This document shows, one piece after another, positions 84 to 41,450 of a DNA stretch of 64,000 bases (its first letter is position 1; each line of letters begins with the position of its first letter). Source of the stretch: Phycisphaerae bacterium (GTDB lineage Bacteria; Planctomycetota; Phycisphaerae; UBA1845); NCBI GenBank assembly GCA_029260115.1, contig JAJDDW010000010.1:695-64694 (forward strand). The letters are read 5' to 3'. The position numbers were made by a program, and so were the translations under genes. The notes beneath the pieces were generated by a model. That model did not search any database. It was given only the letters and a program-made list of their open reading frames with translations, and had not been told where the DNA came from.

Positions 84-283
84 TTATTTAATTTACGCGG
101 CGCGTTACGAGTCGAAAGTTTTCGTAAACACGTAACGCATTGTCGTTAGACAATACCTGCGTAAATCGTGGGTCCATTAACATCTCAGATCGACATTTAC
201 GCAGGGTAGATCAAACGCAAGCGTCTGACACACGGGATATTGTTTGCAAAGGCAAGTGTCCGGTCATGCCTTGGTTTGTTGGC

Positions 284-781
284 TTATGATGAATTAGCGC
301 TGCGAAGCGGCCATTTCCGAATCACCTCGCAGGAAACGATTGTAAATACGACGCCTGCTGCAACTAAGTGATACCAATGGAACACGAGCAAGGTCAGACA
401 CGACCCGCACATCGGCATGCCTAATTTCATTGAGCCTAGAAATAACAAGGGGAAAATTATGATAAACATCGCAAGTGCCAATCCCACCAACGCGGCGGCA
501 CCGTATACCTGTCGCATATTGGATGCCATTCTTGCTTTAGTTTCGTAATGTATCGTGATACGAAGAATGACAAACAACGACACGACACCTCCGAACAAGG
601 GAATCAAAGTGATGATAATTGAATTCACCGTTGGCACGCCAATTCGAAGCCAAGCATAAGACCCCTGTAAGAGACCAATCATGGCTAGCAATCCCAGGAG
701 CGATATATAATACAAAGGCCTTGGGATTTTCACGCCGACATCATTCAAATAGTAAAATCGATTTGACTTTTTTGTTTCCAT
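284..781 (-). CDS. Hypothetical multi-pass membrane protein (165 aa)
   Basis: The ORF has 4-5 long hydrophobic segments and an ATG start. No family recognised. Confidence 0.6.
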   Translation of the reverse strand: METKKSNRFYYLNDVGVKIPRPLYYISLLGLLAMIGLLQGSYAWLRIGVPTVNSIIITLIPLFGGVVSLFVILRITIHYETKARMASNMRQVYGAAALVGLALAMFIIIFPLLFLGSMKLGMPMCGSCLTLLVFHWYHLVAAGVVFTIVSCEVIRKWPLRSANSS

Positions 782-1079
782 GATAAAAACCGCCGAAGGC
801 CCGCGGGCCTGAGTGATCTTGTCATCTATGCTTTTTCAACCAGCAGCCCCAGTCGCACACATGTGTCTACGCTGTACAGTATTACGGTGTTTCTATAAGA
901 AGAGGATAAATTTTTATAATTTATATCTATATCAGCACTTAATTGGGATGCGAATCTCTTTCAAATGCAATCTGATCGAGGCGGAGGGGAGGCTGCACCC
1001 TCCGATGTCAGCATCTAGGCATTTCCCCAGCGGCGGCGTCTAAATGCACCAAAGTGAGGAGTTACGAATATGCAAAGTC

Positions 1080-2276
1080 TCAATCACCTTCCGTTTGTGC
1101 CGCAGTATCATCCATGTCGGCGACGCGGGTTAATTCTTGCTTGACAATGAATCGATGAAAGCTGTCCAGTGCGTTGGGATCGAGTTTCGCTTTCTCTCGT
1201 AGCTCATTTACCAGCTCCATCAAAGCGCGGTTGTTGCTTTCGCGAACAATCTGGGCGGTAAGCTCTACTTGGACATCGGCAAATGAGGGGGTGTAGCCAG
1301 GGTCAATTTCATCGCAGCGTACCAACAGAAAGCCATCCGACACATCTATCTCCGGGCTGACGTCTCCTTGACTTAGGTTATACAAGGCAACGACCGCAGG
1401 CTCATACCGTTCACGCACGCTACCCGGCGTCACCCATTCCCACGCGCCCCCGTCCACGGCATGCAGGCCATGCGATTGCGCCTTGGCGATTTCGGCGAAC
1501 GATGCGCCACTGGCTAAGTCCGCCTTGATTTTACGAATCACTTCGTGGGCCTTGGCCTTGGCACTGTCGTACGCATCGCGCGATGGGGTATCAACGCCTT
1601 CGGGCAAGTAATGCTGGACGCGGATGTCGATGAGTGACATGCGTCTGCGCGGAGGACGTTGAAGTTCATGCTGCGAGGCCTGATACGTTTGCCAAAGTTC
1701 GGCGCGCGTAGGCTCTGTCGTACTCGTCTTGATATTTGTATCGATAAAGCTGGAAATAACAATCTGCCGACGGATATGTTTTCGCACGCTTTCAAGCGTT
1801 TCGCCGTCCGCAGCTAACTGTCGCTCGTACACCCGCTGGCTGCCACCATGTGACAAGGTCACAATCTTACGGACCTCCGCATCCACATATCGATCAATTT
1901 GCTCACCCGCTTTTTCCGGCAATTTATCAGAAGCATGTTCAAAAAGTAATGTCTCAGAAATAGCGTCGTTTAACCATTGCGCGGCCCGACGCTGCACAAA
2001 AGTAGCGTAGGCTTGCGGGGTTGCGGTCGATCGTTTCTGGGCAAGCGCCTTCGCGTTATCACGCGCAAACTGATCGGCATGGATGCGCGTATCGCCAATG
2101 ATGAACGAATCCGCACTATCTCGCGCACGATCAGCAGCCACGCGGCGCTGCGCCCTTTCATTTTTCATATCCGCAGTGCGCGTTACGGATTTTTTTTTGG
2201 CTCCAACGCCTACAGATGAGCAGCCACAAGCGAATAGGCACAACAGAATGGCAAAATTAAACTTAAGCGACTTCAT
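1080..2276 (-). CDS. Parvulin-type peptidyl-prolyl isomerase, SurA/PrsA-like lipoprotein
   Basis: Lipoprotein signal (LLCLFACGCSS). The C-terminal PpiC-like block (SFAEIAKAQSHG...GGAWEWVTPG...GFLLVRCDEI) is typical of parvulin PPIases. The start overlaps the mfd stop by 14 nt. Confidence 0.8.
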   Translation of the reverse strand: MKSLKFNFAILLCLFACGCSSVGVGAKKKSVTRTADMKNERAQRRVAADRARDSADSFIIGDTRIHADQFARDNAKALAQKRSTATPQAYATFVQRRAAQWLNDAISETLLFEHASDKLPEKAGEQIDRYVDAEVRKIVTLSHGGSQRVYERQLAADGETLESVRKHIRRQIVISSFIDTNIKTSTTEPTRAELWQTYQASQHELQRPPRRRMSLIDIRVQHYLPEGVDTPSRDAYDSAKAKAHEVIRKIKADLASGASFAEIAKAQSHGLHAVDGGAWEWVTPGSVRERYEPAVVALYNLSQGDVSPEIDVSDGFLLVRCDEIDPGYTPSFADVQVELTAQIVRESNNRALMELVNELREKAKLDPNALDSFHRFIVKQELTRVADMDDTAAQTEGD

Positions 2277-5200
2277 GTTGTGCTCCTATTCGGTCAACAC
2301 CACGCGACAGCATACGCCGCAAAATGGCTAATAAAGTGTCCTGGTCCTCAAGATAGTTTGGCGGCGGCCGAAGGTGGATAGTCTGACCATCAGCCATGCG
2401 CACACTTCCAGGCGCGTCTACAAAAATAGGTTCCGCCTGTGCTGCCTGCTCGACTGTAAAGACAATATCCGGACGGTGCAAGCTGATCGACTTAATGCCG
2501 AAGCGCCGGCCTAGCACTCTCGCTTCCGCTAATTGAATCAAACGAGACACGGGTTTGGGGATTGGGCCAAACGCATCCAAAAGGTCTTTCTCAATCTGCT
2601 CTAAGTCCAGAAGCGTAACACCGCCTACCACGCGGCGGTAAATTTCGATGCGCGATCGCTCGGCCTGGACGTATCGCGGCGGGATGTGGGCGTCGATGTC
2701 CAGGTCAATATGCAGCGGTGGGGGTGTTGGGTCTGGCTCGTTTTTCTTCTTGCGCACAGCCTTTTCAAGCAATCGGCAATACATATCATATCCAACCGCC
2801 GCAATGTGACCGCTTTGTTCTCCACCGAGGATATTACCCGCGCCACGAATTTCAAGATCACGCATGGCGATACGAAAACCAGCGCCGAGTTCACTGAATT
2901 CTTCAATGGTCTTGAGTCGCTTAACCGCCTTTACGGTCGGTGGCCGATCTGGGGAAATTAACAGATAGCAATAAGCCCGATGATCCGACCGCCCGACACG
3001 GCCACGCAATTGATGAAGATCAGCCAGGCCAATGCGGTCGGCCTGATTGATGAAAATGGTATTCGCGGTGGGAATATCGATGCCGCTTTCGATAATGGTT
3101 GTTGCGACTAGCACATCGGCTTCGCGGCGCACAAATTTGTGCATGACCGCTTCCAGCTCGCCGGTTTTCATCTGACCATGGCCAAAGACAATTCTGGCTT
3201 CAGGGACGATCGAGGCAATGGTGTCAGCCATGGTGGCGATGCTACGCACGAAGTTGTGAATGAAATATACTTGGCCGTCACGATTCATTTCTCGCAGGAT
3301 CGCATCGCGGATTAATTGCCGTTCAAAGGCCCGAACTTCGGTCCCAATGGCCCGACGATCAACCGGCGGAGTTTGCAAAGAGCTAATATCCCGTAAGCCC
3401 ATCATGGACATATGCAGGGTGCGGGGGATTGGCGTAGCAGTGAGTGTGAGAATGTCTACCGTATGTCGCAACGCTTTCAGACGCTCTTTATGGGCCACGC
3501 CAAACCGCTGTTCTTCGTCGATGACAACCAGGCCTAGGTCTTTGAACGAAATGTCTTTGCTTACAAGACGGTGCGTGCCAACAACAAGATCTACCTGCCC
3601 GCGTTTGATACGTTCGACGATTTGCTTTTGCTCTTTGCCAGTTCTAAATCGTGATAGGCATTCGATGGCAAAGGGATAATCGGCAAAGCGCTCCTTAAAA
3701 GTTTTGAAATGTTGCTCCGCGAGCACGGTGGTCGGCACTAGCACGGCGACTTGTTTGCCATACTCGATAACCTTAAACGCCGCCCGCATAGCCAGCTCAG
3801 TTTTACCATATCCCACATCGCCGCAAAGCAGGCGGTCCATGGGACGATGACGGACTAGGTCGTTTCGTATTTCCTCAGATACTGAAAGTTGATCCTCGGT
3901 TTCTTCGTAAGTAAAGGCCGCTTCAAACTCACGCTGCCATGTGGTGTCCCTCGGATAAGCTACCCCATTCGAATCAGCACGAGCAGCCTGCACCTGCAGC
4001 AAACTCTCAGCCATGTCAGCCACGGAGTCTGCCGCTTGGTCCTTCATCTTCTGCCAGCGACGCCCGCCAAGTGTGGATAGGGTGGGCCGACGTCCGGCGA
4101 CGCCAATGTACTTTTGCACCAAATCGACCTGCGAGGTCGGCACATGGACGATAGCGCTGTCGGCAAATTCAAGCGTGAGAAATTCTTCGTGACAGCCTTC
4201 TTTGTTGCGCTGAAGTTTAGTCAGTCCTTGATAGATGGCTATACCATGCACGACGTGAACAACGTAATCACCCTTGCTGAGTTCGGTCCATGATTCTAGC
4301 GGCACGACGTGTCGATCTTTGCGAATGCGGCGGCGCTGTCGGTGTCGATGAAAAAGTTCGTGATGACCCACGACAATCGTATTGGTCGCGGACCAGTGGA
4401 AGCCTTTTTGCATTACGCCAATGTGTACGTTGACCTGAGACGATTTCACGCCGAGCGTATCAAAGATCATCTCCTGCAGGCGGGAACGCTCACCATCATT
4501 GTCGCATATAACGTGTACGCAGTGGTCATGGCTAAGCCGGCAAAGCTCCGCGACCGCTTGGGCTGAGTCCGATTCAAAACGGGTGAGCGATTTTACGTGA
4601 AACGCAAATTTGGTTTCATCATCAGATTGGCCACTTTGAAAACGACTGAGGTGAAGTTGTGGACGGGTCGAGAGGTCAGCCAAAATATCTGTAACCGGAA
4701 AAAGCTGACCTGCATCTCCGAGTCGATCTTTGAGCGTTTCTCCCATTTCCTGTATGTCTATAGGGTCGTCGAGAATGAAAAGCGTATCTTTAGGGAGATA
4801 TGTCAGCAGGGAAGTTTGCGATTCTGCTTCTTGAGGGTCTGGCTTATATACCCCGCATACGGCATACGATTTGAGCGTTTCGAAAGATCTTTGCGTGCTC
4901 ACGTCGAACTTGCGGATGGATTCCAGCTCGTCACCAAAATATTCGATACGCACCGGCTGGGTGTCTCCGGGCGAAAAAATATCTACAATATCACCGCGGC
5001 GGGCGACGTCTCCCGGAGATTCGACCAGATCGAGTCTTTCAAAGCCATGGTCAATAGCCCACGCGATCAGTGTCTCAGGCGAGGGCGATGAATTCTTTTT
5101 CTTTGTAGACGCCTGACCGATCATTAGCGTGCAGTCGGCTAGTTTAGCACGAGTTGGCACAGGTTGCATCAAGGCCTGGATAGGGGCGACGATGATGGGG

Positions 5201-5568
5201 CTTTGATATGCTTTCTTATTTGATGATCGTTCGTTAGCCCGCTGCAAGGTGCTGCAAAGGGCCAACCTTTCGGCATTAATTTCCCCACTCGCTGTTCCTT
5301 CGCCTGGCAATGTTTCCCAGGGAGGAAAAAAACTACACGCTCGTCCTAGGAATAGTTCGAGGTCTTCCCGCGCGCCGTCGGCGGCTTCCAAGTGAGCTGT
5401 GACATACATTACGGGCGATTGTAACTGTTTGGCAGTATAGGCCGAGACTAAAAGCGCAGACGATCCCCACAGTCCGGAAACCTGCACCACCTCGTGAGAG
5501 GGGTTGGCCAGCGTCCGAGCTAAAGTGCTCAATTGAGCATCCTCGGCGATAGTGGGGATCACCAACAC
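2263..5568 (-). CDS. mfd: Transcription-repair coupling factor Mfd
   Basis: 1101 aa. Superfamily-2 helicase motifs (LLCGDVGYGKTE, DEEQRFGV, TATPIPRTL), a CarD-like region (GDYVVHVVHGIA) and a TRCF C-terminal domain. GTG start. Confidence 0.95.
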   Translation of the reverse strand: MLVIPTIAEDAQLSTLARTLANPSHEVVQVSGLWGSSALLVSAYTAKQLQSPVMYVTAHLEAADGAREDLELFLGRACSFFPPWETLPGEGTASGEINAERLALCSTLQRANERSSNKKAYQSPIIVAPIQALMQPVPTRAKLADCTLMIGQASTKKKNSSPSPETLIAWAIDHGFERLDLVESPGDVARRGDIVDIFSPGDTQPVRIEYFGDELESIRKFDVSTQRSFETLKSYAVCGVYKPDPQEAESQTSLLTYLPKDTLFILDDPIDIQEMGETLKDRLGDAGQLFPVTDILADLSTRPQLHLSRFQSGQSDDETKFAFHVKSLTRFESDSAQAVAELCRLSHDHCVHVICDNDGERSRLQEMIFDTLGVKSSQVNVHIGVMQKGFHWSATNTIVVGHHELFHRHRQRRRIRKDRHVVPLESWTELSKGDYVVHVVHGIAIYQGLTKLQRNKEGCHEEFLTLEFADSAIVHVPTSQVDLVQKYIGVAGRRPTLSTLGGRRWQKMKDQAADSVADMAESLLQVQAARADSNGVAYPRDTTWQREFEAAFTYEETEDQLSVSEEIRNDLVRHRPMDRLLCGDVGYGKTELAMRAAFKVIEYGKQVAVLVPTTVLAEQHFKTFKERFADYPFAIECLSRFRTGKEQKQIVERIKRGQVDLVVGTHRLVSKDISFKDLGLVVIDEEQRFGVAHKERLKALRHTVDILTLTATPIPRTLHMSMMGLRDISSLQTPPVDRRAIGTEVRAFERQLIRDAILREMNRDGQVYFIHNFVRSIATMADTIASIVPEARIVFGHGQMKTGELEAVMHKFVRREADVLVATTIIESGIDIPTANTIFINQADRIGLADLHQLRGRVGRSDHRAYCYLLISPDRPPTVKAVKRLKTIEEFSELGAGFRIAMRDLEIRGAGNILGGEQSGHIAAVGYDMYCRLLEKAVRKKKNEPDPTPPPLHIDLDIDAHIPPRYVQAERSRIEIYRRVVGGVTLLDLEQIEKDLLDAFGPIPKPVSRLIQLAEARVLGRRFGIKSISLHRPDIVFTVEQAAQAEPIFVDAPGSVRMADGQTIHLRPPPNYLEDQDTLLAILRRMLSRGVDRIGAQHEVA

Positions 5569-5778
5569 CGTAATTCCATGTTAAGATTAAGGTCAGATAA
5601 TTGCAAAAAACGACTCGGACTGGACCTTGTGACCATACCCGACAACATTCGACAGGTATTCAGTGGTTTGTAAAGCCGATCGTTACTATGCTGCTACAGT
5701 AGGTTAAGTCGTTACACTACCCGCTCTCTAAAATATAGAATGAGAGACCTAGTCGCGATGGCCAACATGAGGATGTAA

Positions 5779-7734
5779 ATGTTAGCGAGAAACCGTAAAC
5801 TTTTAGCCATTATCTTTCTGTGTCCGCCGGGCATCTGCTTCGCTGGGCAGCCTAGTCCTTTACCTCCACAATTTACACTCTCCCGTTACATCCCTGCCGA
5901 TTTTTGGTTTGTAGCTAATTCGGTACCAAACCCCAAAAGCGAATGGATTCGCAACCAGTGGTTGCGCGTGGCTGATGCACTGGCAGCAAGTGGTATTGGC
6001 AATGACATCATATCCATAGTTTCAACTTTGACCGGGTGGGAGGAGACCGGAGAGGACGGGTTAGGTCCAGAGCAGCTGTTAAAGTTATTACGCGGTGTGC
6101 AATGGTGCGATATGTTGAACGGCGAAATCGCGGTCGCGGAGCGCATGCGCCGTGGATCACTGAATTATGAATATGTAATGTTGGCCAAGTCTTCCCCTGA
6201 TGAAGCGCGGAAAAATATGGCTGCCTTAGTCAAGATATTTCAAGCATTATCAGAAACGCGGGACGAGCTGCGCGTTACCCATAAGCAACAACGCGGCATC
6301 GACCAGTGGCTACTCCGCGCCGCTCAGCCAGCCCACTATGGCGAAGGGGATTTCAAACTAACGCTCATTAAAAAAGACGATATCGTTGGATTAATACTCG
6401 GCTCACAGGCGAGAAAAGAAGTATTGTCTCTCATTGCTGATAAGCCCGGTGCCCGGTCAATCTTACAATCGCCTCGTTTTATTGAAGCGTTTTCACAAGT
6501 TGACGCCCCTGAAGATAGCTACACATTTTTCGATGCCCGCATGTTGATCGATGATATCCGCATTGCTGCCATGAAGCGTATTAAGCAAGAGGGGAAATCT
6601 GAGAACGAATCACCGGCTATTCCAATTGTTAAAGCAGCGCTAAAACTGGTTGATATATACGACTATATGCTAACGTCCACACGCACCGAAGGCATGCAAC
6701 AGCACGTTCAAATGGTCACCCGCATTCAGCCAGATAAAAAACGTGCGCCTCTTGCTCGCATGATCTACGATCAACGCCCTATTAAACAATTTGATCGGTA
6801 TATCCCCGCTGACGTTTTATCATTTAGCATAGGCAGCCATGTAGATGTGAGTAGAGGATACCATCTTATTCGCCATTTTGTAGCAGAGCATGTGCCCGAC
6901 GGGGTTGGCAAGTTGTCGAAATTCGATGATATGCTTGAGACCATGGGATTCAACTTTGATCGCGACATCCTCAGCTGGCTCAGCGGCGAAACGATGAACG
7001 TCACGCTCCCCGCCTCTGCACCGACACCTATGTCACAGTACGACAACGTTTTGTTCATACGCGTGAAAGATCCAGAAGTCGCTTATGAAAAAGTTAATGA
7101 AGCATTGACTTTTGCCACCAATAAATTGCGAGAGATCGGTCAGCCCGTCTTTGTCCGTCAGGTTGACACGCCGAATGGTCAATGTTGCGAAGTCGTACAT
7201 CCGCTACTGGCTATGATCGGTCGTCCCGTGATTGGTGTTGCGGATAATTGGCTGTATATCAGCAACTCAGTCGACAGCGTTAATCGGTGCATGGCTGTGT
7301 CGCGTGGCGAAGCGCCTTCGGTATTGAAAAATAAACGATTCATTGACGAAGGGATTATACCTCCCGGCCCGGTACGATCGATTTCCTTTACAGATCGACG
7401 CCATTTTGGCCTGGAATTGGCCCGACAAGTGGCTGCGATCAACCAGCTTGGCGCAGTGATTCCATCACTACTACTAAAACAACACGAGCAATCGCCGGCC
7501 GACGATCTCCAGAAAAAAATCCAACATGTGCAACTTGTGACCCACCTAATGGGGGCAATGAGCAAATTACCGTTAGTGCTAAAGCAAATTAATTTCTACA
7601 GTTCGGAATCAAGCTACTGCACCTTTGATGGGCAATATTCTCGATCGCAGGGGCTAATCACCTATCGCAACCCCGTAGAAGAACTGTCAGACGAGCCATC
7701 GGCGGTGAACGTCGAAGTCGTCGTCACCCCGTAA
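5779..7734 (+). CDS. Hypothetical secreted protein (651 aa)
   Basis: Long ORF with an N-terminal signal-like segment (LLAIIFLCPPGICFAG). No catalytic motif recognised. Confidence 0.75.
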   Translation: MLARNRKLLAIIFLCPPGICFAGQPSPLPPQFTLSRYIPADFWFVANSVPNPKSEWIRNQWLRVADALAASGIGNDIISIVSTLTGWEETGEDGLGPEQLLKLLRGVQWCDMLNGEIAVAERMRRGSLNYEYVMLAKSSPDEARKNMAALVKIFQALSETRDELRVTHKQQRGIDQWLLRAAQPAHYGEGDFKLTLIKKDDIVGLILGSQARKEVLSLIADKPGARSILQSPRFIEAFSQVDAPEDSYTFFDARMLIDDIRIAAMKRIKQEGKSENESPAIPIVKAALKLVDIYDYMLTSTRTEGMQQHVQMVTRIQPDKKRAPLARMIYDQRPIKQFDRYIPADVLSFSIGSHVDVSRGYHLIRHFVAEHVPDGVGKLSKFDDMLETMGFNFDRDILSWLSGETMNVTLPASAPTPMSQYDNVLFIRVKDPEVAYEKVNEALTFATNKLREIGQPVFVRQVDTPNGQCCEVVHPLLAMIGRPVIGVADNWLYISNSVDSVNRCMAVSRGEAPSVLKNKRFIDEGIIPPGPVRSISFTDRRHFGLELARQVAAINQLGAVIPSLLLKQHEQSPADDLQKKIQHVQLVTHLMGAMSKLPLVLKQINFYSSESSYCTFDGQYSRSQGLITYRNPVEELSDEPSAVNVEVVVTP

Positions 7735-7743
7735 TCTTCACAT

Positions 7744-8943
7744 CTATTTCTGCGTGATTTTTACGGTTAATTCGTCGCGTATCGATTTCACACTCAAGTG
7801 TCCATGCCCAGCTAGTAAATCACCCACCACGCATCCCACAGTCTGGCCACGCCAGCCATCTAAGAGTTCAGGCTTGCTGCTTTCTTGGGTTGCATCACCG
7901 TTTCGTAACTGGACGAGCTGTCGAATCGTTTTTTGGGTAGCGACAAGCCCATAGGCTAATCCGTGTTCAAGGCAGTAACTCCGAATAGCGGCCTGTGTAA
8001 GCGCTACGATCGCCGCCTCTTTCGGTGTTTCCAGCTCACGATGAGGCCTATTTTGCTGCTTGGGAGGCGTTTTTTGCAGAGCTATCGCTACAATTTCAGC
8101 CACATCTTTGACGTCGCGCCGGCTAAGGTTATTGCCCCGAAGTTCAGATATTTCGGTAGGGTTTGATAATTGATGTTTTGCAATTTCAACCAACAGATGG
8201 TCTCGCAACACGGTTCGGGCAGGCCGATTCACCCTTTTAGCAAAGGCATCCCGCCACGCACTCAAATCGTGCAACACCACCAGCGAATGCCCGCGTAGCG
8301 ATCCGCCACCCTTGATTTTTGAGAATTTTTGCTCGTCGTTTTTTTGATAGGTGTTCATATCAACGAATTTGGAAAACTCTTCCTCGGCCCAGCTCAATCG
8401 TTTATTTTTTTTTAAATAGGCGTGTAGCTTTGCATGGACACCCAAAAGATGATTCACATCTTCCGCGCCATAATGAATCTGAGCCTCAGCCAACGGTCGA
8501 CGTCGCCAATCGGTCAGCGTTTTCGATTTATTGAGTTTCACGCCAAGAACTGAATGAACCAATCGTAACAAGCTCAATGGATAGTCGAGATCGCACAAGC
8601 CAGCCGCAATTTGTGTGTCGAATACTGCGGCGGGGGGCTGGCCAAGATGCTGCGCACACAGGGCCATGTCCTCATACCCGGCGTGAACGACGGTTGTGAT
8701 ATCTTTATCCGCTACAATTTCCCATACTTCGGTGACGTCGAGGTCCGCAAGCGGGTCCACAATAAACACCGCATCGGCAATGGCTATTTGAATAAGGCAG
8801 ACCTCGGGCATGTACCGATCTTCCATGACGAATTCGGTATCAAAACCTATAATACCAGAATCACGGCATTGCATACAGGCTTCGCTTAGCTGCTTAGCCT
8901 TTGTGATAAGGATAGGAGATGGCTTAGAATTAGTCGCGGCCAA
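7744..8943 (-). CDS. rnd: Ribonuclease D (DEDDy 3'-5' exonuclease with HRDC region)
   Basis: Exo motifs are present: GFDTEF, VVHAGYEDMA and HYGAEDVNHL. Length and C-terminal helical domains fit RNase D. Confidence 0.85.
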   Translation of the reverse strand: MAATNSKPSPILITKAKQLSEACMQCRDSGIIGFDTEFVMEDRYMPEVCLIQIAIADAVFIVDPLADLDVTEVWEIVADKDITTVVHAGYEDMALCAQHLGQPPAAVFDTQIAAGLCDLDYPLSLLRLVHSVLGVKLNKSKTLTDWRRRPLAEAQIHYGAEDVNHLLGVHAKLHAYLKKNKRLSWAEEEFSKFVDMNTYQKNDEQKFSKIKGGGSLRGHSLVVLHDLSAWRDAFAKRVNRPARTVLRDHLLVEIAKHQLSNPTEISELRGNNLSRRDVKDVAEIVAIALQKTPPKQQNRPHRELETPKEAAIVALTQAAIRSYCLEHGLAYGLVATQKTIRQLVQLRNGDATQESSKPELLDGWRGQTVGCVVGDLLAGHGHLSVKSIRDELTVKITQK

Positions 8944-32640: not shown

Positions 32641-33027
32641 GTGAATATGGGATTATCGCAAGCTGACATTAACGCACTGTTTCCGGGAGAAGAGGTGGAG
32701 GTCGAAGCGCCTTTGACTGTGTCACCTCCGCCACCTGTCGCGCCTACACCGCCAGTTGTGCGCACCAACGACGTGCGGCGAATTCTACGCTTAAATGTAC
32801 CTCTTACTGTCGTGCTGGTTGAACGAGATATGCCCATCGAGCACATATTGGGTATGCGGGTGGGAACTATCATCGAGTTCGACGTTTCGTTTGATTCCGA
32901 GTTACGTCTTTTTGCCGCAAACCAAGCTATTGGTGCCGGGCACGCGGTAAAGGTAGCTGAGTCATTCGGTATTCGTCTGACGAAAACACTCACCGTAGAA
33001 GACCGAATCAAAGCGTTAGGCCATTAA
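32641..33027 (+). CDS. fliN: FliN/SpoA-domain flagellar switch-like protein with an N-terminal LSQxxIxAL peptide
   Basis: The C-terminal block LNVPLTVVLVERDMPIEHILGMRVGTIIEFD...GAGHAVKVAESFGIRLTK matches the FliN/SpoA fold pattern. The N-terminus MGLSQADINALF resembles the FliM/FliY CheY-P binding peptide, and a Pro-rich linker follows. The start is either GTG 32641 or ATG 32647. Confidence 0.75.
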   Translation: MNMGLSQADINALFPGEEVEVEAPLTVSPPPPVAPTPPVVRTNDVRRILRLNVPLTVVLVERDMPIEHILGMRVGTIIEFDVSFDSELRLFAANQAIGAGHAVKVAESFGIRLTKTLTVEDRIKALGH

Positions 33028-33094: not shown

Positions 33095-34336
33095 CTATTT
33101 GTCATCTTGGTTGTTGCGCATTCGCTCTAACCAGGCTAGTGCTTGCTGGCGATCTTTGACTTTTTCGTTTAGCTGTGCTCGATATAGCGAGGACAGTAGC
33201 CTTCCGAGCTGTGGGCCAGCATTTACGCCTAGCGATTTGAGGTCGTCGCCTGTAAGAAGTGGCGGGGGGGCAACAGCTGACTTCTCAATGTGTCGTGTGT
33301 TTTCAATTAGTTCGTCATAGACGCTCATGGCCTGGCCGCTAGCGCTCACCTCGGCATTTAGCAATATGACAAGCTCAGGCCAGCGCGGGTGTGCCATGAG
33401 CAGTTTCAAATCAGCCAGTTCTAAACGACGTGAATGGGCCGCTTCTGGCAACGAACCGATGAGCCATGAAATGTCGCTGGTTAGCCGATTGCTCAGGCGT
33501 AGCTCATGGCAAACTTGATTCACGATAGTCCGCGGTAGATGACACAACACCGCCGCGAATGCCAGGGATACTGGGATTTCTTCGTCTGGCAAAAAAGATA
33601 ATCGCGAGAGGGCGGTACGGTCAGCCGACAGATCATCCGACCAACTGGTTGCGAGATACCCGCGTAGACCGGCATCAATAAGCCACTGCCAGCCGCAGCC
33701 TCTCGAGGGGGCGGCGAGAATGGCTTCAAGCTCCATCGCGATGCGCTCCGCGCTAATGGCTCTAAGCTTAGGGGCTAGCTGTTTGATTTGTGATAGGGTA
33801 TCGGGATGAACGTCAAAACCCAGCCGAGCGGCAAACCTCACGGCCCGCAGCATCCGCAGATGGTCCTCTGCAAAGCGCTTTGTTGGCTCACCGATTGTAC
33901 GTAACAGCTTGTTTCGTAAATCTTCCTGCCCACCTACATAATCTATGACCTCATTTTTTTCGGTATCATAGAACAGGCCATTGATCGTAAAATCACGTCG
34001 CTGGGCGTCTTCCTTCGCCGTGGTAAATTCGACCTGTTCTGGGTGTCTTCCATCCAGATAATCGCCATCAGATCGAAATGTTGCTACCTCAATATCGTGG
34101 CGATACTTTCTGACTAAAACGACGCCGAACTGAGCGCCAACAACTCTAGCACGCGGGAACCATTTGCGAACTTGTTCGGGTAGGGCGTCGGTAGCTACGT
34201 CATAGTCCTTTGGCGATAGGCCAAGCAGTTCGTCCCGCACACATCCACCGGCGAGCAGGGCGATGGCCCCCTCCTGACGCAGCTTCGCGATCACCGCGAT
34301 GGCTGCTTGTTTAGCGGTGTGCGTGTGCTGGGGCAT
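33095..34336 (-). CDS. cca: CCA-adding tRNA nucleotidyltransferase / poly(A) polymerase family protein
   Basis: LAGGCVRDELLG...DYDVAT nucleotidyltransferase head, plus RRDFTINGL and ERIxxEL. Confidence 0.88.
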   Translation of the reverse strand: MPQHTHTAKQAAIAVIAKLRQEGAIALLAGGCVRDELLGLSPKDYDVATDALPEQVRKWFPRARVVGAQFGVVLVRKYRHDIEVATFRSDGDYLDGRHPEQVEFTTAKEDAQRRDFTINGLFYDTEKNEVIDYVGGQEDLRNKLLRTIGEPTKRFAEDHLRMLRAVRFAARLGFDVHPDTLSQIKQLAPKLRAISAERIAMELEAILAAPSRGCGWQWLIDAGLRGYLATSWSDDLSADRTALSRLSFLPDEEIPVSLAFAAVLCHLPRTIVNQVCHELRLSNRLTSDISWLIGSLPEAAHSRRLELADLKLLMAHPRWPELVILLNAEVSASGQAMSVYDELIENTRHIEKSAVAPPPLLTGDDLKSLGVNAGPQLGRLLSSLYRAQLNEKVKDRQQALAWLERMRNNQDDK

Positions 34337-34337
34337 G

Positions 34338-34931
34338 CTACTTCTTTTCTCCGGTTTCGCGTTCTAGCATGAGCATGACGTGCGTTCCGTAATTTCGTTG
34401 ATCGTATATATGCCATGTATCAAACACTTCTATAGCTGTTCCCTTTTTCACGTGTAACACCACGAGCTGATTATTTGTTGGATGGGGAGGTATCGCCTGC
34501 AAGCACGTGCAAACTTGGCCAGTATGGGTCAAATCCTGCGACTGGGCGTAGGGTGGATCGAAAAAGAATAAATCGAATGGCTCCATGGCAGAATGTGACA
34601 AAACGGCTGACCATGCATCGCGCCGTTCGATAGTCGTCAAGGATGCCGCGTCGAGTGTGTCGATGTTTTGCTGCAATATTTTGATAACATCTCGTTCGGT
34701 TTCAAAGAAACAACAGCTAGCTACACCTCTTGATAACGCTTCTAGGCCCATAGACCCGCTACCCGCGAATACGTCGGCAACCCGCAGCGGTGGGAGCGAG
34801 CCGGGCAGATCATAGTATACGCCTAATCGATCAAAGACCGCTTGGCGGATACGGTCTGGCATGGGCCTGGTGGTTGTCACCGCAGGCCAAAGAATCTGTC
34901 GCGACCGCCACTGACCTGCAATAATTCTCAT
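34338..34931 (-). CDS. rsmD: 16S rRNA (guanine966-N2)-methyltransferase RsmD
   Basis: MRIIAGQWRSR...TRPMPDRIRQAVFD, the DVFAGSGSMGLEALSRG SAM motif and FFDPPY. Confidence 0.88.
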   Translation of the reverse strand: MRIIAGQWRSRQILWPAVTTTRPMPDRIRQAVFDRLGVYYDLPGSLPPLRVADVFAGSGSMGLEALSRGVASCCFFETERDVIKILQQNIDTLDAASLTTIERRDAWSAVLSHSAMEPFDLFFFDPPYAQSQDLTHTGQVCTCLQAIPPHPTNNQLVVLHVKKGTAIEVFDTWHIYDQRNYGTHVMLMLERETGEKK

Positions 34932-36006: not shown

Positions 36007-36283
36007 TCACGCGCCGCGCGGTATAGAGTATGAGGCTAAACAGCCTACATGAGTAAACCGCCGCTTGAGCCCGAGCGGGGGATAAGTTTGGCCTTAAGCC
36101 GCCGTTCCGTCCTTCCCACGCAGGTGGGAATCCAGTGCGAATTTACGAATGGTGGTGTGTGTCTAGCAAGGCTTTTTGGATATATATCAGCGATTGAACA
36201 GCGCTCTTTACCTTACATTTGCTGGTAACTACAATGGTCTGTGTGGGATAAGCGGGTTTTTGTACTATTTGCGAGGACTATTC

Positions 36284-36466
36284 ATGGCACGCGCTCTCTT
36301 GGTTTTGCTTATGGTTCATGCCGCCGCGTCGCAAGCGTTGGCACAAGTGCCAGCTCCGCTTGATGAGGCGGAGGGCGGCGTAATGACGATGGTCTGGGCG
36401 ATAGGCATTATCATTGTCACTGGCCTGTCATCAGTGATAAATCCAAAACGAACGCACATGACCTAA
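36284..36466 (+). CDS. Small exported / membrane-anchored protein (60 aa)
   Basis: ATG at 36284. Signal peptide MARALLVLLMVHAAASQALAQ, then a C-terminal TM helix (MTMVWAIGIIIVTGLSSVI). The track ORF starts further upstream. Confidence 0.45.
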   Translation: MARALLVLLMVHAAASQALAQVPAPLDEAEGGVMTMVWAIGIIIVTGLSSVINPKRTHMT

Positions 36467-36516
36467 TACTCAAAATGTTTGGTTAGGGCTACATTTCATA
36501 AAAGAAAGGTTTTTCT

Positions 36517-36819
36517 ATGCTCAATAAGAAATCTGTCATTGTCGCCTTGGTTGGCTTAAACATGGTATTGTTGCTGCTGCTGTTAGTACAGACCGGTACG
36601 TTGGCCTTGCCACGTGCGATGGCTTTAGCTGGTGGAAAAGCGGGAAACGTAGCCGTAGTCACCGCAAAGCCGTCTGGTCAATCTTTCGATGTGGTTTATG
36701 TTGTGGATCAAGCCACCGACCAACTTATCGCCTTTGCCCCAGTTAATATCCAAAATGGACAATATAAACACTTGGGCACGCGAGACTTAGCTAAAGATTT
36801 TTCTGGAAAGACTAACTAA
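36517..36819 (+). CDS. Small N-terminally anchored protein, paralog A (100 aa)
   Basis: AAAGG lies upstream of the ATG. One N-terminal TM helix, then an about 55 aa beta-rich module that aligns with the next gene. Confidence 0.6.
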   Translation: MLNKKSVIVALVGLNMVLLLLLLVQTGTLALPRAMALAGGKAGNVAVVTAKPSGQSFDVVYVVDQATDQLIAFAPVNIQNGQYKHLGTRDLAKDFSGKTN

Positions 36820-36841
36820 TCAACGGAAGGGAGCTTCAACT

Positions 36842-37183
36842 ATGAATTCTAAAGATATGACTATTGCTGTCCTTTCCACAACGAGTGTTGTGCTGCTGGT
36901 TGGTTTACTGGTGGTCAACGTCCTGCCAACCCCAGCCTTTGGTTCGGGTATGACAGCCACAGCTGGTAAGTATGTGGTTACTGTAGGCGTTGGCTCAGCG
37001 AACAATGAAGAATATGTGTATATAGCTGACACCTCATCTGACCGGATAGGCGTCTATCGATTTATCGGGGGCCGCATTGAGCTAAGTGCGGGCATCGACC
37101 TGGCTGAGTTCACAACAAATAAAAATAACGCATCAAGCCAGACCAGACCTACTAGCCGTTCGTCGCGGGGACGTAGACCGTAG
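36842..37183 (+). CDS. Small N-terminally anchored protein, paralog B (113 aa)
   Basis: GGAAGGGAG lies upstream of the ATG. Same architecture as 36517-36819, with shared pattern AG.(V/Y).V(V/T)......(V/Y)VY(V/I).D...D.(L/I)..(F/Y).........L....DLA.(D/E)F. Basic Ser/Arg-rich tail. Confidence 0.6.
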   Translation: MNSKDMTIAVLSTTSVVLLVGLLVVNVLPTPAFGSGMTATAGKYVVTVGVGSANNEEYVYIADTSSDRIGVYRFIGGRIELSAGIDLAEFTTNKNNASSQTRPTSRSSRGRRP

Positions 37184-37485: not shown

Positions 37486-38634
37486 TTATTTGCTACGCGC
37501 TTTGTCGAGGACTACTTTCTGTAGCTGATCATCCATTCTCGGCACCTGACTCTTGGCGGCGAAACTGTTGGTTAAATACTCGGCTAAGCTTTGCCGCTGG
37601 CTGGTCGAAAACTTGGCGTCTCCTCGAATCAACGACAACAGTTGCTTTGAAAAATCGTCGTCCGTTTGGTATAGGCATTCATCTCGGAATTCGCTTGGCA
37701 GCAACTCGGGATATGACAGCCGATTTGGAAACAACGGCTGACACCCAAGCATCATGGCCTCGACAACGGCTATGCCGAAATTTTCCTGGTTGGCAGTACT
37801 GACGACGATATCGCAACTGGAGACCAGGGTTAAATAATCATTTCGGGCGGGCACGAAACCGGCGTGACGGACGCGATGTTTTACGTCGTTGAAAAATTTC
37901 GCAAATTCCGGCGGGGCGGTCCGAAATTGTTCTCCAACTGCAACGATGTCAAAAGGTAACGACATTTGGTCGGCCTTGCGTAAGGCGTCAAAGAATGGTT
38001 TGGGGTTCTTATCGTATTCCCAGCGGTGACACCATAATATAGTTATGGGATCTTGGTTGTGACCAAGGTTATCGCCCTTTTCCTTATGATTAACGTCAAC
38101 TGCGGGATAAACTACCTGAGATTTCTTTTCGATACGCGACACGATTGCTGCAGGTACATGGTCTGGCATTTTGCGCAGTAAGTTGTCGGCTGCGGATAGA
38201 AAAGATTGTTGATGGGCCTGCGAATTAAACCAGACACTGTCAGCGGCTAGGCACGAAGTAATGTTGGTCATGCCATATTGATAGTCGCGCATATCACCAT
38301 CTGATAGCGGATAGGTAAGTTGATTTTCATGAAAATAACAGACGATTGAGATGTTGCGTAAATTCGATGGCAGCAGTGAACGAAGATCAGCTACGCTTAG
38401 CATGTCGTTGCAAAGAATCACGTCGACAGGCGCCACCCCCCCGCCTTGTAGCCAGTCAATTTCATGCAACGCAAACCACATAGCCGAGCCTCGCATACGC
38501 CATTTCCATTTACGCGCAGGAAGCTGAGCCAAGACACAATCATGTCGTGAGTGCTGGATAACAGTATCGACGAAAGCCGCATGCGATCCGCCATAATATG
38601 GTTCGAGTACGCCGACACGAAGTGGTCGTTGCAT
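37486..38634 (-). CDS. DUF3524-type glycosyltransferase, GTDC1 / tRNA-queuosine alpha-mannosyltransferase-like
   Basis: Motifs LEPYYGGSHAAFVD, LPARKWKWRMRGSAMWF, YFHENQLTYPL, RDYQYGMTNITSCLAADSVWFNS and MPDHVP closely parallel what I recall of human GTDC1. The C-terminal half is GT-B glycosyltransferase group-1-like (ENFGIAVVEAM). Confidence 0.75.
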   Translation of the reverse strand: MQRPLRVGVLEPYYGGSHAAFVDTVIQHSRHDCVLAQLPARKWKWRMRGSAMWFALHEIDWLQGGGVAPVDVILCNDMLSVADLRSLLPSNLRNISIVCYFHENQLTYPLSDGDMRDYQYGMTNITSCLAADSVWFNSQAHQQSFLSAADNLLRKMPDHVPAAIVSRIEKKSQVVYPAVDVNHKEKGDNLGHNQDPITILWCHRWEYDKNPKPFFDALRKADQMSLPFDIVAVGEQFRTAPPEFAKFFNDVKHRVRHAGFVPARNDYLTLVSSCDIVVSTANQENFGIAVVEAMMLGCQPLFPNRLSYPELLPSEFRDECLYQTDDDFSKQLLSLIRGDAKFSTSQRQSLAEYLTNSFAAKSQVPRMDDQLQKVVLDKARSK

Positions 38635-39012
38635 ATGTTGCGTCCATTGTGACAGGTCATATCATGATTTCAGGAACACGGCATTATAGTACATGAAAGG
38701 GTATCGCGATGGAAGAACATGACGAGCATCCCCCTGTTTCCAAACTCCTCGCCCTACTCTCCAATACCAACAGCAATACTGTCGAGGACACTCAATTCGA
38801 TCTCGCATACTACGGGGCCAGCGCGGTATCAATGGAACAAGGAACTTGAAGTGCGATGGCCCTGAGGTCGTACCGACATGCGGGCAGATATTATTTATTG
38901 ATAGCTCACACAAGTGAACGGTTGGACGTATAATCAGGCCACTAAAAGTACTGGACTTGCTACGTAGTCACGATTCTATTGGACACCCGTTACAGAATCT
39001 CGTGGAACGCTC

Positions 39013-39936
39013 ATGAACAATCTTCTCCAAGCTCAGCATGTTCGCGTGGAATTCGGATCCACCGTAGCCGTTAGTGATATATCGTTTGATTTAGCTGGTG
39101 GGCAGTTACTCGGATTGGTTGGTCCAAACGGGGCTGGTAAGACCACCCTACTACGCGTATTGGCTGGTTTGCAAGCGCCGACGCGTGGTGAAGGGTATGT
39201 GATGGGCAAACCCGTGCTGGGCAAGCACGAAATCGTTCGCCATCACATCGGCTTCGCGCCAGATTCCCCGCCGGTTTATGAAGAACTCACCGTCGAGCAA
39301 TTCCTACGCTTCATCGGCCGGGCATATGGCCTGGACGCTGATGAAACGAATGAACGTATTGACTATTGGCTGGAACAACTCTGGCTAACTGATAAGCGTG
39401 ATTCGGAAATCAAAAATCTTTCACGCGGTATGAAGCAGCGCATCACGTTAGCGCGAACTTTCTTACCCCAGCCTCACGTACTCCTACTTGATGAACCGCT
39501 GGCAGGGCTAGACCCCGCGGGGAGAATACAACTCCGCAACGTGTTGACGATGCTGTGCAATCAGGGGTGTGCGATGATTGTTTCGTCACACATCCTGTCC
39601 GACTTGGAAGCAGTCGCAACCCACATTGCGATTATCGAACATGGTAGCATACTCCGCTGGTCTGAAACAAGTGCCATGCATCACACAGACGAACATCGGC
39701 GAACATATAGCATGACTACGCTCGATAATCATGCTTCGCATACGGCGGCCCTCGAATCGATTGAAGGTGTTACGAATGTGATAGTCAACGGTCGCACCTA
39801 TACATTAGACTATCACGCGGGCGACGCGCACGCGGCTGAACTGTTACAAAATATTTTACAACAGCACATTTCAGTGTGTTCGTTTATGGTAGTCAAAACG
39901 ACATTGGAACAGGCGTACCTAAAAGCTGGCGTATAG
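39013..39936 (+). CDS. ABC transporter ATP-binding protein
   Basis: Walker A GPNGAGKTT, signature LSRGMKQR and Walker B LLLDEPLAGLD. There is an about 90 aa C-terminal extension. Confidence 0.92.
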   Translation: MNNLLQAQHVRVEFGSTVAVSDISFDLAGGQLLGLVGPNGAGKTTLLRVLAGLQAPTRGEGYVMGKPVLGKHEIVRHHIGFAPDSPPVYEELTVEQFLRFIGRAYGLDADETNERIDYWLEQLWLTDKRDSEIKNLSRGMKQRITLARTFLPQPHVLLLDEPLAGLDPAGRIQLRNVLTMLCNQGCAMIVSSHILSDLEAVATHIAIIEHGSILRWSETSAMHHTDEHRRTYSMTTLDNHASHTAALESIEGVTNVIVNGRTYTLDYHAGDAHAAELLQNILQQHISVCSFMVVKTTLEQAYLKAGV

Positions 39937-39947
39937 CAGGTGGATTA

Positions 39948-41450
39948 ATGAGCGAACGATTTCAATTGCCCGTCGCTATGATTAGCGTTCAGTATCACTT
40001 ACTCGGTAAGCATGCGCGTATATGGGGTATGAGCGTGCTGTATGGATTCGCCTTGGTCATCGGGTTTCTCGTCATGTGTCGCATCATGTATGAGGAGTCA
40101 GTCACAGTTTCTGCAGACGTCGCTCAAGCCGCTGCTTATATTATAGTGGGGATACAGCCATTATTCGCTATTCTCGGAGGTTCTAGTGCTATCTATCGCG
40201 CCATGCTTCGAGACTATGAAACCAAAATGTTCGAATCTCATCGCCTGACTCCAATGACTAATGTAAGCGTCGTACTTGGATACACATTTGGTCCAACGTT
40301 ACAAATCATGGCTTTGCTGTTGGTAAGCACCGTTTTTGGAAGCGTCATGACATTGATGGCTGGTGCATCACTTCCCATGTGGCTTTGTGGGAATTTACTT
40401 CTGATGTCTGGTGCGGTAACCATATGGGTCTTGGTCGTATTCTCCGGCATGAGATTAGCTAAGCCTATATCGCCCACACCTATTATGGTTGGCATCAGCA
40501 TATTGAGTACGTCGCTCATCGTTTTTCCTGGTGGTGGATTGCTATGTGGTTTTTATTCTATTTTTCTTTCCTGCTGGATTATGTCCCCCAACAACACCAT
40601 AAGCCCGGCGGCAGTTATTCTCGTATGCGCAGTCAATTTAATTTTTGCGTTGTTCTGGATATCGGCTGCGGCGGCAAAGTATCGACGCCCTGACTTGCCA
40701 GCCATGAATGCCACGCGCGGCTTGGCGTTTTTTGTTTGCTGGCTCGTTGTGTCGATTATCGGCATCCAGGTTTATGAACACGCTACGATAACAACTATGA
40801 AAAGTTTCCACGATTCGGAACTTCTCCTAAGTCAATGGGTGAGTACGATGATTGGTTCGTTGTTAGTTGGCGCTTTCCTAGTAAACAGCGCGGTGGCTTG
40901 TAGAATTGCAGTTCGTCGAGGTGCGGCCTCCCGCGGATGGGGAGACCGTGTCCCTCACTCACTCGTCACGTTCATGATCGCTCTTATGATCTGTGTCATC
41001 ATGTCAAGCGTAGGTTATTCACTGTGGAAGAGATGGTTATCAATCGATGGCGTTATCAACACGGAGGCAACTTTTCACGCCTGGGGTTATAGCCTAGCCG
41101 CGTGTATGTTGGCGATGTTCATGCTGCGTGGCTGGTTGGTGATGATCTACACGCGCGCTAAGAAACCTAAGTATGGAACCATATTCGTGTTCTTTTTGCT
41201 CTGGTGTGTGCCTATAGGGCTTGATGCATTACGTGCGGGATTGGAGTGCGATTTTCAAGGAGAGCCTGAAATGTCCTGGCTATTCGCCTGCTCTCCCGCG
41301 GGCACGATTGCTGCGGTCTGGGCCAACATGGGCCTTAATCTGTTTCCCGGCATCCTCGCACAGGCTGCAATTGCTGGTCTATTATCAATGTTAGCATGGC
41401 GATACACGCGCCGGATGCAATTGCCTGATACCTCCAAATTAGCGAGCTAG
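39948..41450 (+). CDS. Multi-pass membrane protein, putative ABC-2-type permease partner
   Basis: About 500 aa with at least 10 hydrophobic helices, immediately downstream of the ATPase. ATG at 39948 chosen; the track ORF starts at 39876, inside the ATPase gene. Confidence 0.7.
   Translation: MSERFQLPVAMISVQYHLLGKHARIWGMSVLYGFALVIGFLVMCRIMYEESVTVSADVAQAAAYIIVGIQPLFAILGGSSAIYRAMLRDYETKMFESHRLTPMTNVSVVLGYTFGPTLQIMALLLVSTVFGSVMTLMAGASLPMWLCGNLLLMSGAVTIWVLVVFSGMRLAKPISPTPIMVGISILSTSLIVFPGGGLLCGFYSIFLSCWIMSPNNTISPAAVILVCAVNLIFALFWISAAAAKYRRPDLPAMNATRGLAFFVCWLVVSIIGIQVYEHATITTMKSFHDSELLLSQWVSTMIGSLLVGAFLVNSAVACRIAVRRGAASRGWGDRVPHSLVTFMIALMICVIMSSVGYSLWKRWLSIDGVINTEATFHAWGYSLAACMLAMFMLRGWLVMIYTRAKKPKYGTIFVFFLLWCVPIGLDALRAGLECDFQGEPEMSWLFACSPAGTIAAVWANMGLNLFPGILAQAAIAGLLSMLAWRYTRRMQLPDTSKLAS

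Follow-up and report, generated by a model that had tools for sequence, protein, structure and literature searches.

Here, we describe a glycosyltransferase (GT) gene located in a 64,000-nucleotide stretch of contig JAJDDW010000010.1 of a Phycisphaerae bacterium, the whole of which is called the window in the following. Judged by its sequence, the encoded protein is an intact bacterial orthologue of animal QTMAN (also named GTDC1), the tRNA-queuosine mannosyltransferase: a two-domain enzyme of GT-B fold, GT4 type and predicted retaining mechanism, which is apparently catalytically intact. By analogy to the animal enzyme, we propose with a probability of roughly 0.55 that it acts as a tRNA queuosine-34 (Q34) hexosyltransferase, probably a mannosyltransferase. 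This proposal is based on the conserved motifs of its N-terminal domain (N-domain), on the cytoplasmic character of the protein, and on a scattered, stand-alone and vertically inherited gene. Three parts of the proposal are inferred from the animal case: Q34-tRNA as the acceptor, the identity of the donor sugar, and the tRNA species.

Relationship to animal QTMAN

The human reference protein, P0122 in our collection, was found by a query with the human GTDC1 sequence, and all later comparisons use P0122. In the alignment, it differs from this query by one residue, and it is 96% identical to macaque proteins named tRNA-queuosine alpha-mannosyltransferase. BLASTP aligns the window protein with this reference collinearly from end to end, with 38% identity in the N-domain (E=3e-37) and 38% in the C-terminal domain (C-domain; E=1e-31). 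Both proteins combine the Pfam families PF12038 and PF00534. A linker of approximately 100 residues separates the two domains in the human protein but is missing in the bacterial one. An hhalign comparison of a profile of 21 bacterial sequences with one of six animal sequences yields a probability of 100% and E=2.1e-90 over 352 collinear columns, and the similarity to animal QTMAN is, at the level of sequence comparison, well beyond chance.

In Pfam, the N-domain is assigned to QTMAN_N (PF12038, formerly DUF3524) with E=2.6e-60; the match scores 203.5 bits (cutoff 25) and spans the profile from position 2 to its end at 168. The C-domain matches PF00534 with 50.9 bits against a cutoff of 26.4 (E=1.7e-13) and PF13692 with E=9.5e-9. 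GT-B enzymes hold the nucleotide sugar in the C-domain and the acceptor in the N-domain. By analogy, the N-domain is presumed to be the acceptor-binding Rossmann half and the C-domain the nucleotide-sugar donor half.

The initial annotation had described the gene as a full-length bacterial homologue of GTDC1, and the end-to-end QTMAN_N match, the 38% identity in both domains and the profile probability of 100% are in good agreement with this. The motifs it quoted were all found again, namely EPYYGGSH, LPARKWKWRMRGSA, YFHENQLTYP, RDYQYG, SCLAADSVWFNS and MPDHVP (amino acids (aa) 156-161). Pairwise alignment, profile alignment to GTDC1 and column conservation each retain the DUF3524 motifs, hence the similarity is not limited to the generic GT-B fold.

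An alignment of 24 diverse members, among them the window protein and those of human and alligator, has the invariant residues W45, R46, H102, E103, Q105, Y108, N137, R204, D208, K209, Y267, G287, E292, G297 and P303. Among the 56 columns that are conserved to at least 85% in the 21 bacteria, which belong to different phyla, 51 have the same residue in at least five of the six animals. Mean identity between bacteria and animals is 35% in the N-domain and 42.5% in the C-domain, compared with 39% and 42% among bacteria. As these values are about the same, the acceptor domain does not appear to have diverged. Within the N-domain, fixed differences between bacteria and animals are confined to two columns, K44->H and P96->K.

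The window protein and animal QTMAN share the N-domain motifs GGSH, WKWR (with W45 and R46), HENQxxYP, RD and FNS, and the two groups have kept these to the same degree as the motifs of the donor side, HRWExDKxP, E-x7-E and YPE. This equal conservation suggests an identical or closely similar acceptor. The pattern favours a common acceptor over a different one, although it is no proof.

Motifs, predicted structure and cellular location

Positions of domains and motifs are given in Table 1. The basic and aromatic loop LPARKWKWRMRGSA is specific to the QTMAN family. The HRWEYDKNP-type hallmark at the start of the C-domain is common to the window protein, animal QTMAN and a phage GT lineage that is described below; by analogy to GT4 enzymes, its R and K may bind the donor diphosphate. 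The E-x7-E motif is a typical feature of retaining GT4 enzymes.

An AlphaFold2 model built with a 42-sequence alignment reached a predicted local distance difference test (pLDDT) score of 89.3 and a predicted template modelling (pTM) score of 0.90. It has alternating beta and alpha elements in two Rossmann-like halves, and the GT-B fold is confidently predicted. Foldseek found 421 matches in the PDB at E<=1e-3, and the listed best are retaining GT-B enzymes: archaeal glycogen synthase, MshA, BshA, SenB, HepE and PimA, with 10-17% identity and template modelling (TM) scores of 0.6-0.7. These generic GT4/GT5-type enzymes share the fold and an E-x7-E-type C-domain with the window protein, whereas its N-domain constitutes a separate Pfam family. 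Because of the low identity, the structural matches are read as a generic fold signal. Neither by sequence nor by fold (Foldseek) does the PDB contain a solved structure of the QTMAN family; the sequence search returned generic GT4 C-domain fragments only, at E>=1e-3.

The maximum 19-residue hydropathy is 1.26, so neither a transmembrane segment nor a signal peptide is expected, and the protein looks soluble and cytoplasmic. This bears on the reading as an ordinary GT4 enzyme of cell-envelope or exopolysaccharide (EPS) synthesis. Such a role would agree with the automatic JGI label 'glycosyltransferase involved in cell wall biosynthesis', with weak sub-threshold NCBIfam matches to EPS, lipopolysaccharide (LPS) and teichoic-acid GT4 enzymes (EpsE, HpsP, XYAG1), which are limited to the C-domain, and with a second GT4 gene downstream in three Desulfobacterales loci. 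However, all NCBIfam equivalogs score well under their cutoffs (best 27.5 bits versus 400), and these particular matches reach at most 27.5 bits against cutoffs of 274-550; the N-domain is QTMAN_N and not Glyco_transf_4, and a membrane segment is lacking. Gene context points in the same direction. Open reading frames (ORFs) were called in 80 homologue loci and the window, and those within +/-10 kb of 77 homologues and of the window gene were clustered. No glycan-cluster genes occur among the window ORFs scanned, and no glycan neighbour recurs across the 77 loci. We consider an envelope function improbable.

Proposed reaction and choice of the acceptor

The activity of animal QTMAN is reported by Zhao et al. 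(2023), to whom PMC11755703 and PMC12518689 refer. According to PMC12518689, the animal enzyme transfers mannose from GDP-mannose to the allylic 3-OH of queuosine (Q) in tRNA-Asp. In the bacterial enzyme, the C-domain would correspondingly bind a nucleotide sugar, probably GDP-mannose, and the family-specific N-domain would engage a tRNA that contains queuosine, by analogy tRNA-Asp, at its anticodon loop. The hexose would then be moved, with its configuration retained, onto a hydroxyl of the Q34 cyclopentene-diol, which following the animal example would mean mannose on the allylic 3-OH in tRNA-Asp. The expected product is a glycosyl-queuosine resembling mannosyl-queuosine (manQ). Different from the situation in animals, the bacterial host would make Q de novo and not by salvage. 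Scattered stand-alone genes are usual for tRNA-modification enzymes, and the genes of this family are likewise scattered, stand-alone and located outside glycan clusters.

Two other enzymes that decorate Q are of interest for comparison. In the searchable literature, glutamyl-Q is regarded as the decoration of bacteria, and mannosyl- and galactosyl-Q as those of animals, mostly vertebrates (PMC10690763). As a functional analogue (PMC10690763), the glutamyl-Q tRNA-Asp synthetase GluQRS/YadB would share the nucleoside, i.e., the Q34 cyclopentene-diol, and plausibly also the tRNA. It differs in its unrelated fold, a truncated class I aminoacyl-tRNA synthetase, and in forming an aminoacyl ester instead of a glycoside. 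QTGAL/B3GNTL1, the tRNA-queuosine beta-galactosyltransferase, also glycosylates Q34 in animals. This enzyme is a member of a GT2-type (GT-A) family. Pfam detects no GT2 domain in the window protein, and none was found among the window ORFs scanned.

Several results weigh against Q34 as the acceptor. The searchable literature contains neither a report of glycosyl-Q in bacteria (PMC10690763) nor biochemical or genetic work on bacterial members of the family. The protein is not basic: its isoelectric point (pI) is 6.5, and that of the N-domain is 6.6 compared with 8.8 in human. Among solved structures, the nearest folds are mostly those of enzymes with small-molecule acceptors (BshA, MshA, SenB, tetrahydrobiopterin glucosyltransferase). 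An Rfam search around the gene gave no element, and neither a preQ1 nor another riboswitch, at E<=1. In the clustered loci, no neighbour is conserved across phyla; the most frequent clusters are of a generic kind, with ABC ATPases in 14 loci and histidine kinases in 11, and all others comprise at most five loci within one lineage. Informative domain fusions were not seen either: ten unusually long members consist of QTMAN_N and GT1 only, and their N-terminal extensions have no Pfam match.

Linkage to genes of the Q pathway was searched by tblastn with E. coli QueA, Tgt, QueC, QueD, QueE, QueF, QueG and GluQRS over the 1.22 Mb of the 80 loci. The sole match, a QueC with 35% identity to E. coli QueC, was found in a metagenome-assembled genome (MAG) of Desulfobulbia (L046, 3625-4311, minus strand), 2.4 kb upstream of the QTMAN homologue and on the opposite strand. 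With roughly two matches expected by chance in 1.22 Mb, one QueC is at chance level or lower and was rejected as evidence for a gene-context link to queuosine; the lack of such a link counts as a further point against the proposed acceptor.

The same is true for neighbours with a role in RNA modification, which are about as frequent as chance. In three spirochaete loci (L018, L023, L026), a gene for an RsmB/F-type RNA 5-methylcytosine (m5C) methyltransferase of approximately 260-300 aa follows directly downstream on the same strand, abutting or overlapping (L023 copy: PF01189, E=6.5e-29); this possible RNA-modification operon was seen in this one spirochaete lineage only. In L074, a gene for an RlmN-like radical S-adenosylmethionine (SAM) rRNA/tRNA methyltransferase (RlmN_N and Radical_SAM domains) lies upstream in the same orientation with a gap of 1 nt and appears to be translationally coupled to the QTMAN-like gene. 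Genes for the CCA-adding enzyme and RsmD occur within 10 kb in the Phycisphaerae clade, the window among them (clusters 3, 9, 10 and 11; L002, L003, L010 and others), which is lineage-level synteny only. RNA modification takes approximately 2% of bacterial genes. As these neighbours are phylogenetically dependent and occur at about chance frequency, we gave them no weight.

Most of these results can also be read in favour of a different assignment, in which the bacterial members use an acceptor other than Q34-tRNA and mannosyl transfer to Q-tRNA is an acquisition of the animal branch. Conceivable acceptors include small metabolites of the cytoplasm, 7-deazapurines or queuine-type bases or nucleosides in free form, Q precursors in tRNA (epoxyqueuosine (oQ), preQ1), and other RNAs. 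The missing Q-gene synteny, riboswitch and fusion would fit this assignment, as would the less basic N-domain, the lack of reports on bacterial glycosyl-Q (PMC10690763), and the small acceptors of the top structural neighbours, for example malate, inositol phosphate, selenophosphate and tetrahydrobiopterin. Moreover, GTs for free 7-deazapurines exist, for example HuiG of huimycin biosynthesis (bioRxiv 10.64898/2026.04.15.718813). HuiG-type enzymes are GT-B proteins that glycosylate a 7-deazapurine, but they carry a PF13439-type N-domain, act on the free base with N-acetylglucosamine (GlcNAc), and are encoded in actinomycete biosynthetic clusters; no such cluster is present in the window. The structural neighbours, in turn, are merely 10-17% identical. 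A change of acceptor class should leave group-specific differences in the N-domain, yet just K44->H and P96->K are seen; the conserved bacterial columns that are identical in animals include all N-domain motifs, and the divergence between bacteria and animals is no greater than that among bacteria. A different acceptor is the main rival; we consider it less likely and keep the Q34 hexosyltransferase as the preferred assignment.

Distribution of the family

A word-indexed protein search with the window protein returned 5580 proteins at E<=1e-5, the best 120 of which are 48-100% identical. Named proteins among these 120 come mostly from MAGs of Planctomycetes, Phycisphaerae or Phycisphaerales. 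An exhaustive HMMER search yielded 966 clusters (50% identity) at E<=1e-30, and a crinoid GTDC1 is found among the top 150 cluster representatives. In a GTDB scan with one genome per species and the HRWEYDKNP motif as pattern, at least 594 species genomes carry the gene. They belong to Planctomycetota, Desulfobacterota, Spirochaetota, Chloroflexota, Bacteroidota (including Rhodothermales and Ignavibacteriales), Verrucomicrobiota, Lentisphaerota, Zixibacteria, KSB1 and Proteobacteria; Desulfatibacillum alkenivorans DSM 16219 is a cultured carrier.

The initial annotation had drawn attention to the full-length bacterial copy. Such a copy is indeed present; it is neither an oddity nor rare, as the 594 or more species genomes and the 966 clusters demonstrate. 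NCBI names already exist for members, either 'DUF3524 domain-containing protein' or 'tRNA-queuosine alpha-mannosyltransferase domain-containing protein'. Bacterial homologues are already recorded in databases, and the window gene is an ordinary member of a large branch. In the searchable literature, no paper mentions DUF3524, and papers on QTMAN, GTDC1 or manQ are silent on bacteria. One apparent paper on GTDC1 and horizontal gene transfer merely used an anti-GTDC1 antibody and was discarded.

In a neighbour-joining tree, the window protein falls into a Phycisphaerae clade, bacterial clades mostly track taxonomy, and the animals form one clade. Plasmid and phage records contain no homologue, and the scan of viral contigs revealed one relative restricted to the C-domain (L081) and nothing else. 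The family is chromosomal, and its genes appear to be vertically inherited.

Two minor observations concern individual members. The locus L010 (JANQQE010000011.1), labelled 'Alphaproteobacteria bacterium', encodes a homologue that is 53% identical to the window protein and lies inside the Phycisphaerae clade. Its flanking gene clusters on both sides are common to the Phycisphaerae locus L006, which may point to a wrong MAG label or a mis-binned contig. In the P0301 cluster, a sub-lineage of the family with five 545-aa members that come from different contigs, an N-terminal extension of approximately 180 aa without Pfam match reproducibly precedes QTMAN_N.

Phage relatives in 7-deazaguanine gene rows

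The viral contig L081 (IMGVR_UViG_3300035698_003099) carries at 170-8644 a gene row that encodes FolE, a Gat-QueC fusion, a GFO/IDH/MocA-type oxidoreductase, the GT, a DpdA-like transglycosylase (phrog_887, E=1.6e-24), ParB and terminase. A search with this GT in 5.8 billion proteins gave five matches, which comprise four phage-like relatives and one QTMAN_N protein. The latter, P0402, is the only match outside the phage lineage, and its contig is short and uninformative. All four relatives (P0399, P0400, P0401 and P0403; Table 1) are located in rows with 7-deazaguanine synthesis genes. DpdA or a DpdA-sized ORF is present in three of the phage GT lineages (L081, P0399, P0400), where DpdA was assigned by profile match in L081 only and the 284-298-aa ORFs of the other loci by size and position.

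The phage lineage profile matches the QTMAN family with an hhalign probability of 99.5% (E=1.5e-22) in the C-domain only, including the shared motif HRWxxDK(N/R)P. For the phage N-domain, the hhalign probability with QTMAN_N is 0.5%, and the Pfam QTMAN_N model does not match; no relationship is detectable between the N-domains, and only the C-domain is taken as related. The context is a row of viral 7-deazaguanine genes and not a chromosome as in the case of the window gene. These rows suggest a sugar-bearing 7-deazaguanine in phage DNA or a phage-made base, of which we found no description in the searchable literature. For the Q34 reading, they lend weak support in that a QTMAN-related GT lineage is associated with 7-deazaguanine chemistry. 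As the acceptor domain differs, this tie is loose.

The phage rows also bear on the reading as a GT for DNA modification or phage defence, i.e., of a 'conflict system'. Such a role could be seen in the faint Pfam match of the window protein to GT4-conflict (PF20706, E=0.035) and in the related phage lineage, which has DpdA in some rows. Yet the Pfam match reaches only 13.5 bits against a cutoff of 26, and PADLOC gives no match for the window protein. Apart from the C-domain-only lineage, phages, plasmids and viral contigs are devoid of homologues; dpd, restriction or defence genes are found near the gene neither in the window nor in the 77 loci, and the clades follow taxonomy. We regard this role as very improbable.

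Implications

QTMAN was reportedly identified in 2023, and its physiological role is said to be still under study. As a tentative broader picture, to which we give slightly less than even odds, a manQ-like hexosyl-Q34 may occur in several bacterial phyla, animal QTMAN may be a branch of an old bacterial family, and phage sisters may glycosylate 7-deazaguanines in DNA. If this is true, Planctomycetota, Desulfobacterota, Spirochaetota, Bacteroidota, Chloroflexota and others are concerned, and glycosylated queuosine would be no animal invention. The bacterial repertoire would gain a new tRNA nucleoside, and the origin of the animal enzyme would be reframed. In addition, an intron-free enzyme of approximately 380 aa without the animal linker would be tractable for structural work on tRNA recognition. 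If it is not true, a strongly conserved GT family would have a new acceptor. The phage relatives point to a possible, so far unreported sugar-bearing 7-deazaguanine modification of DNA. As the same conserved core is present in hundreds of bacterial species, at least one of them cultured, the question whether bacteria glycosylate Q is open to a direct test.

The gene and its surroundings in the window

The ORF is complete, and its ends and minus-strand orientation agree exactly with the initial annotation (Table 1). Its GC content of 0.488, and of 0.507 at third codon positions (GC3), is similar to that of the neighbours, and the gene looks native to the host chromosome. It appears monocistronic, because the upstream gene is divergent and the downstream gene convergent. 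A single weak sigma-70-like match is located in the divergent intergenic region (38918->38890, minus strand). The 6 promoter-like matches found are not above the 3.2 +/- 2.1 expected from shuffled sequence, and the terminator scan gave no more matches than chance predicts.

Table 1. Positions of the QTMAN-like gene, its domains, motifs and neighbours, and of the phage GT loci (aa, amino acids; CDS, coding sequence)
Feature	Sequence	Position	Strand	Remarks
CDS of QTMAN/GTDC1-family GT4 glycosyltransferase	window	37486..38634	-	ATG to TAA, complete, 382 aa
N-terminal QTMAN_N (formerly DUF3524) domain, aa 7-179	window	38098..38616	-	Pfam PF12038; 38% identity to human QTMAN aa 1-164
EPYYGGSH motif, aa 11-18	window	38581..38604	-	G15, G16, S17, H18 near-invariant in bacteria and animals
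LPARKWKWRMRGSA motif, aa 38-51	window	38482..38523	-	W45, R46 invariant; P39, W43, R48 near-invariant
YFHENQLTYP motif, aa 100-109	window	38308..38337	-	H102, E103, Q105, Y108 invariant in bacteria and animals
RDYQYG (aa 116-121) ... SCLAADSVWFNS (aa 127-138) block	window	38221..38289	-	D117, F136, N137, S138 kept across family
C-terminal GT1-type domain, aa 188-339	window	37618..38073	-	PF00534, PF13692; 38% identity to human QTMAN aa 279-415
HRWEYDKNP motif, aa 203-211, start of C-domain	window	38002..38028	-	R204, D208, K209 invariant
E-x7-E motif ENFGIAVVE, aa 284-292	window	37759..37785	-	E292 invariant; position 284 is E or D
Divergent intergenic region, 378 bp, shared with ABC-transporter ATPase gene	window	38635..39012	.	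presumed promoter location
ABC-transporter ATPase gene	window	39013-39936	+	divergent upstream neighbour
CCA-adding enzyme (PolyA_pol head, tRNA_NucTran2_2) and RsmD (Cons_hypoth95)	window	33095-34931	-	2.5-5 kb from QTMAN-like gene
Phage GT	L081	2978-4057		359 aa, motif NHRWEFDKNP
Gene row of phage GT P0399	L088-L090			FolE, Gat-QueC, oxidoreductase, DpdA-sized ORF, ParB, QueD; weak radical-SAM match, maybe QueE
Gene row of phage GT P0401	L091-L094			Gat-QueC, FolE, unannotated ORFs, faint PIG-L match, ATP-grasp gene
Gene row of phage GT P0400	L095			oxidoreductase, DpdA-sized ORF and ParB only; 5-kb contig
Gene row of phage GT P0403	L096			QueD, ParB

The initial annotation had noted that no tgt or que genes are adjacent. 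This applies to the whole window: none of the 41 window ORFs scanned with Pfam was assigned to such genes, and the eight E. coli Q-pathway proteins gave no tblastn match across the 64 kb. No tRNA genes were found in the window. It carries gyrA, RNase D, plsX-fabH-fabD-fabG-acpP-fabF, the CCA-adding enzyme, RsmD, feoB, an efflux set of the resistance-nodulation-division (RND) type and two-component systems, and is ordinary chromosome. An artefact, be it contaminating eukaryotic DNA, a pseudogene or an ORF that arose by chance, is practically negligible as an explanation: the ORF is intact with all family-invariant residues kept, the animal linker insert is absent, GC resembles that of the neighbours, the flanks are bacterial housekeeping genes (gyrA, the fatty-acid synthesis genes, RNase D, CCA-adding enzyme, RsmD), and the protein groups with Phycisphaerae sequences.

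Some further features of the surroundings were observed. In the region 39013-41450 (plus strand), the ABC ATPase gene is followed by an ORF for a 524-aa multi-pass hydrophobic protein without Pfam match, which is presumably an unclassified permease partner; the two ORF calls overlap by 61 nt. On the other side, the convergent downstream neighbours of the QTMAN-like gene are small ORFs without Pfam matches. Three of them (96, 100 and 113 aa) are arranged in series at 36176-37183 (plus strand), each with an N-terminal hydrophobic stretch, and the last two (100 and 113 aa) are paralogue-like. Finally, a lone 128-aa FliN/FliMN_C ORF (E=3.5e-15) is located at 32641-33027 (plus strand) beside the fatty-acid synthesis genes, with no further flagellar genes in the window.

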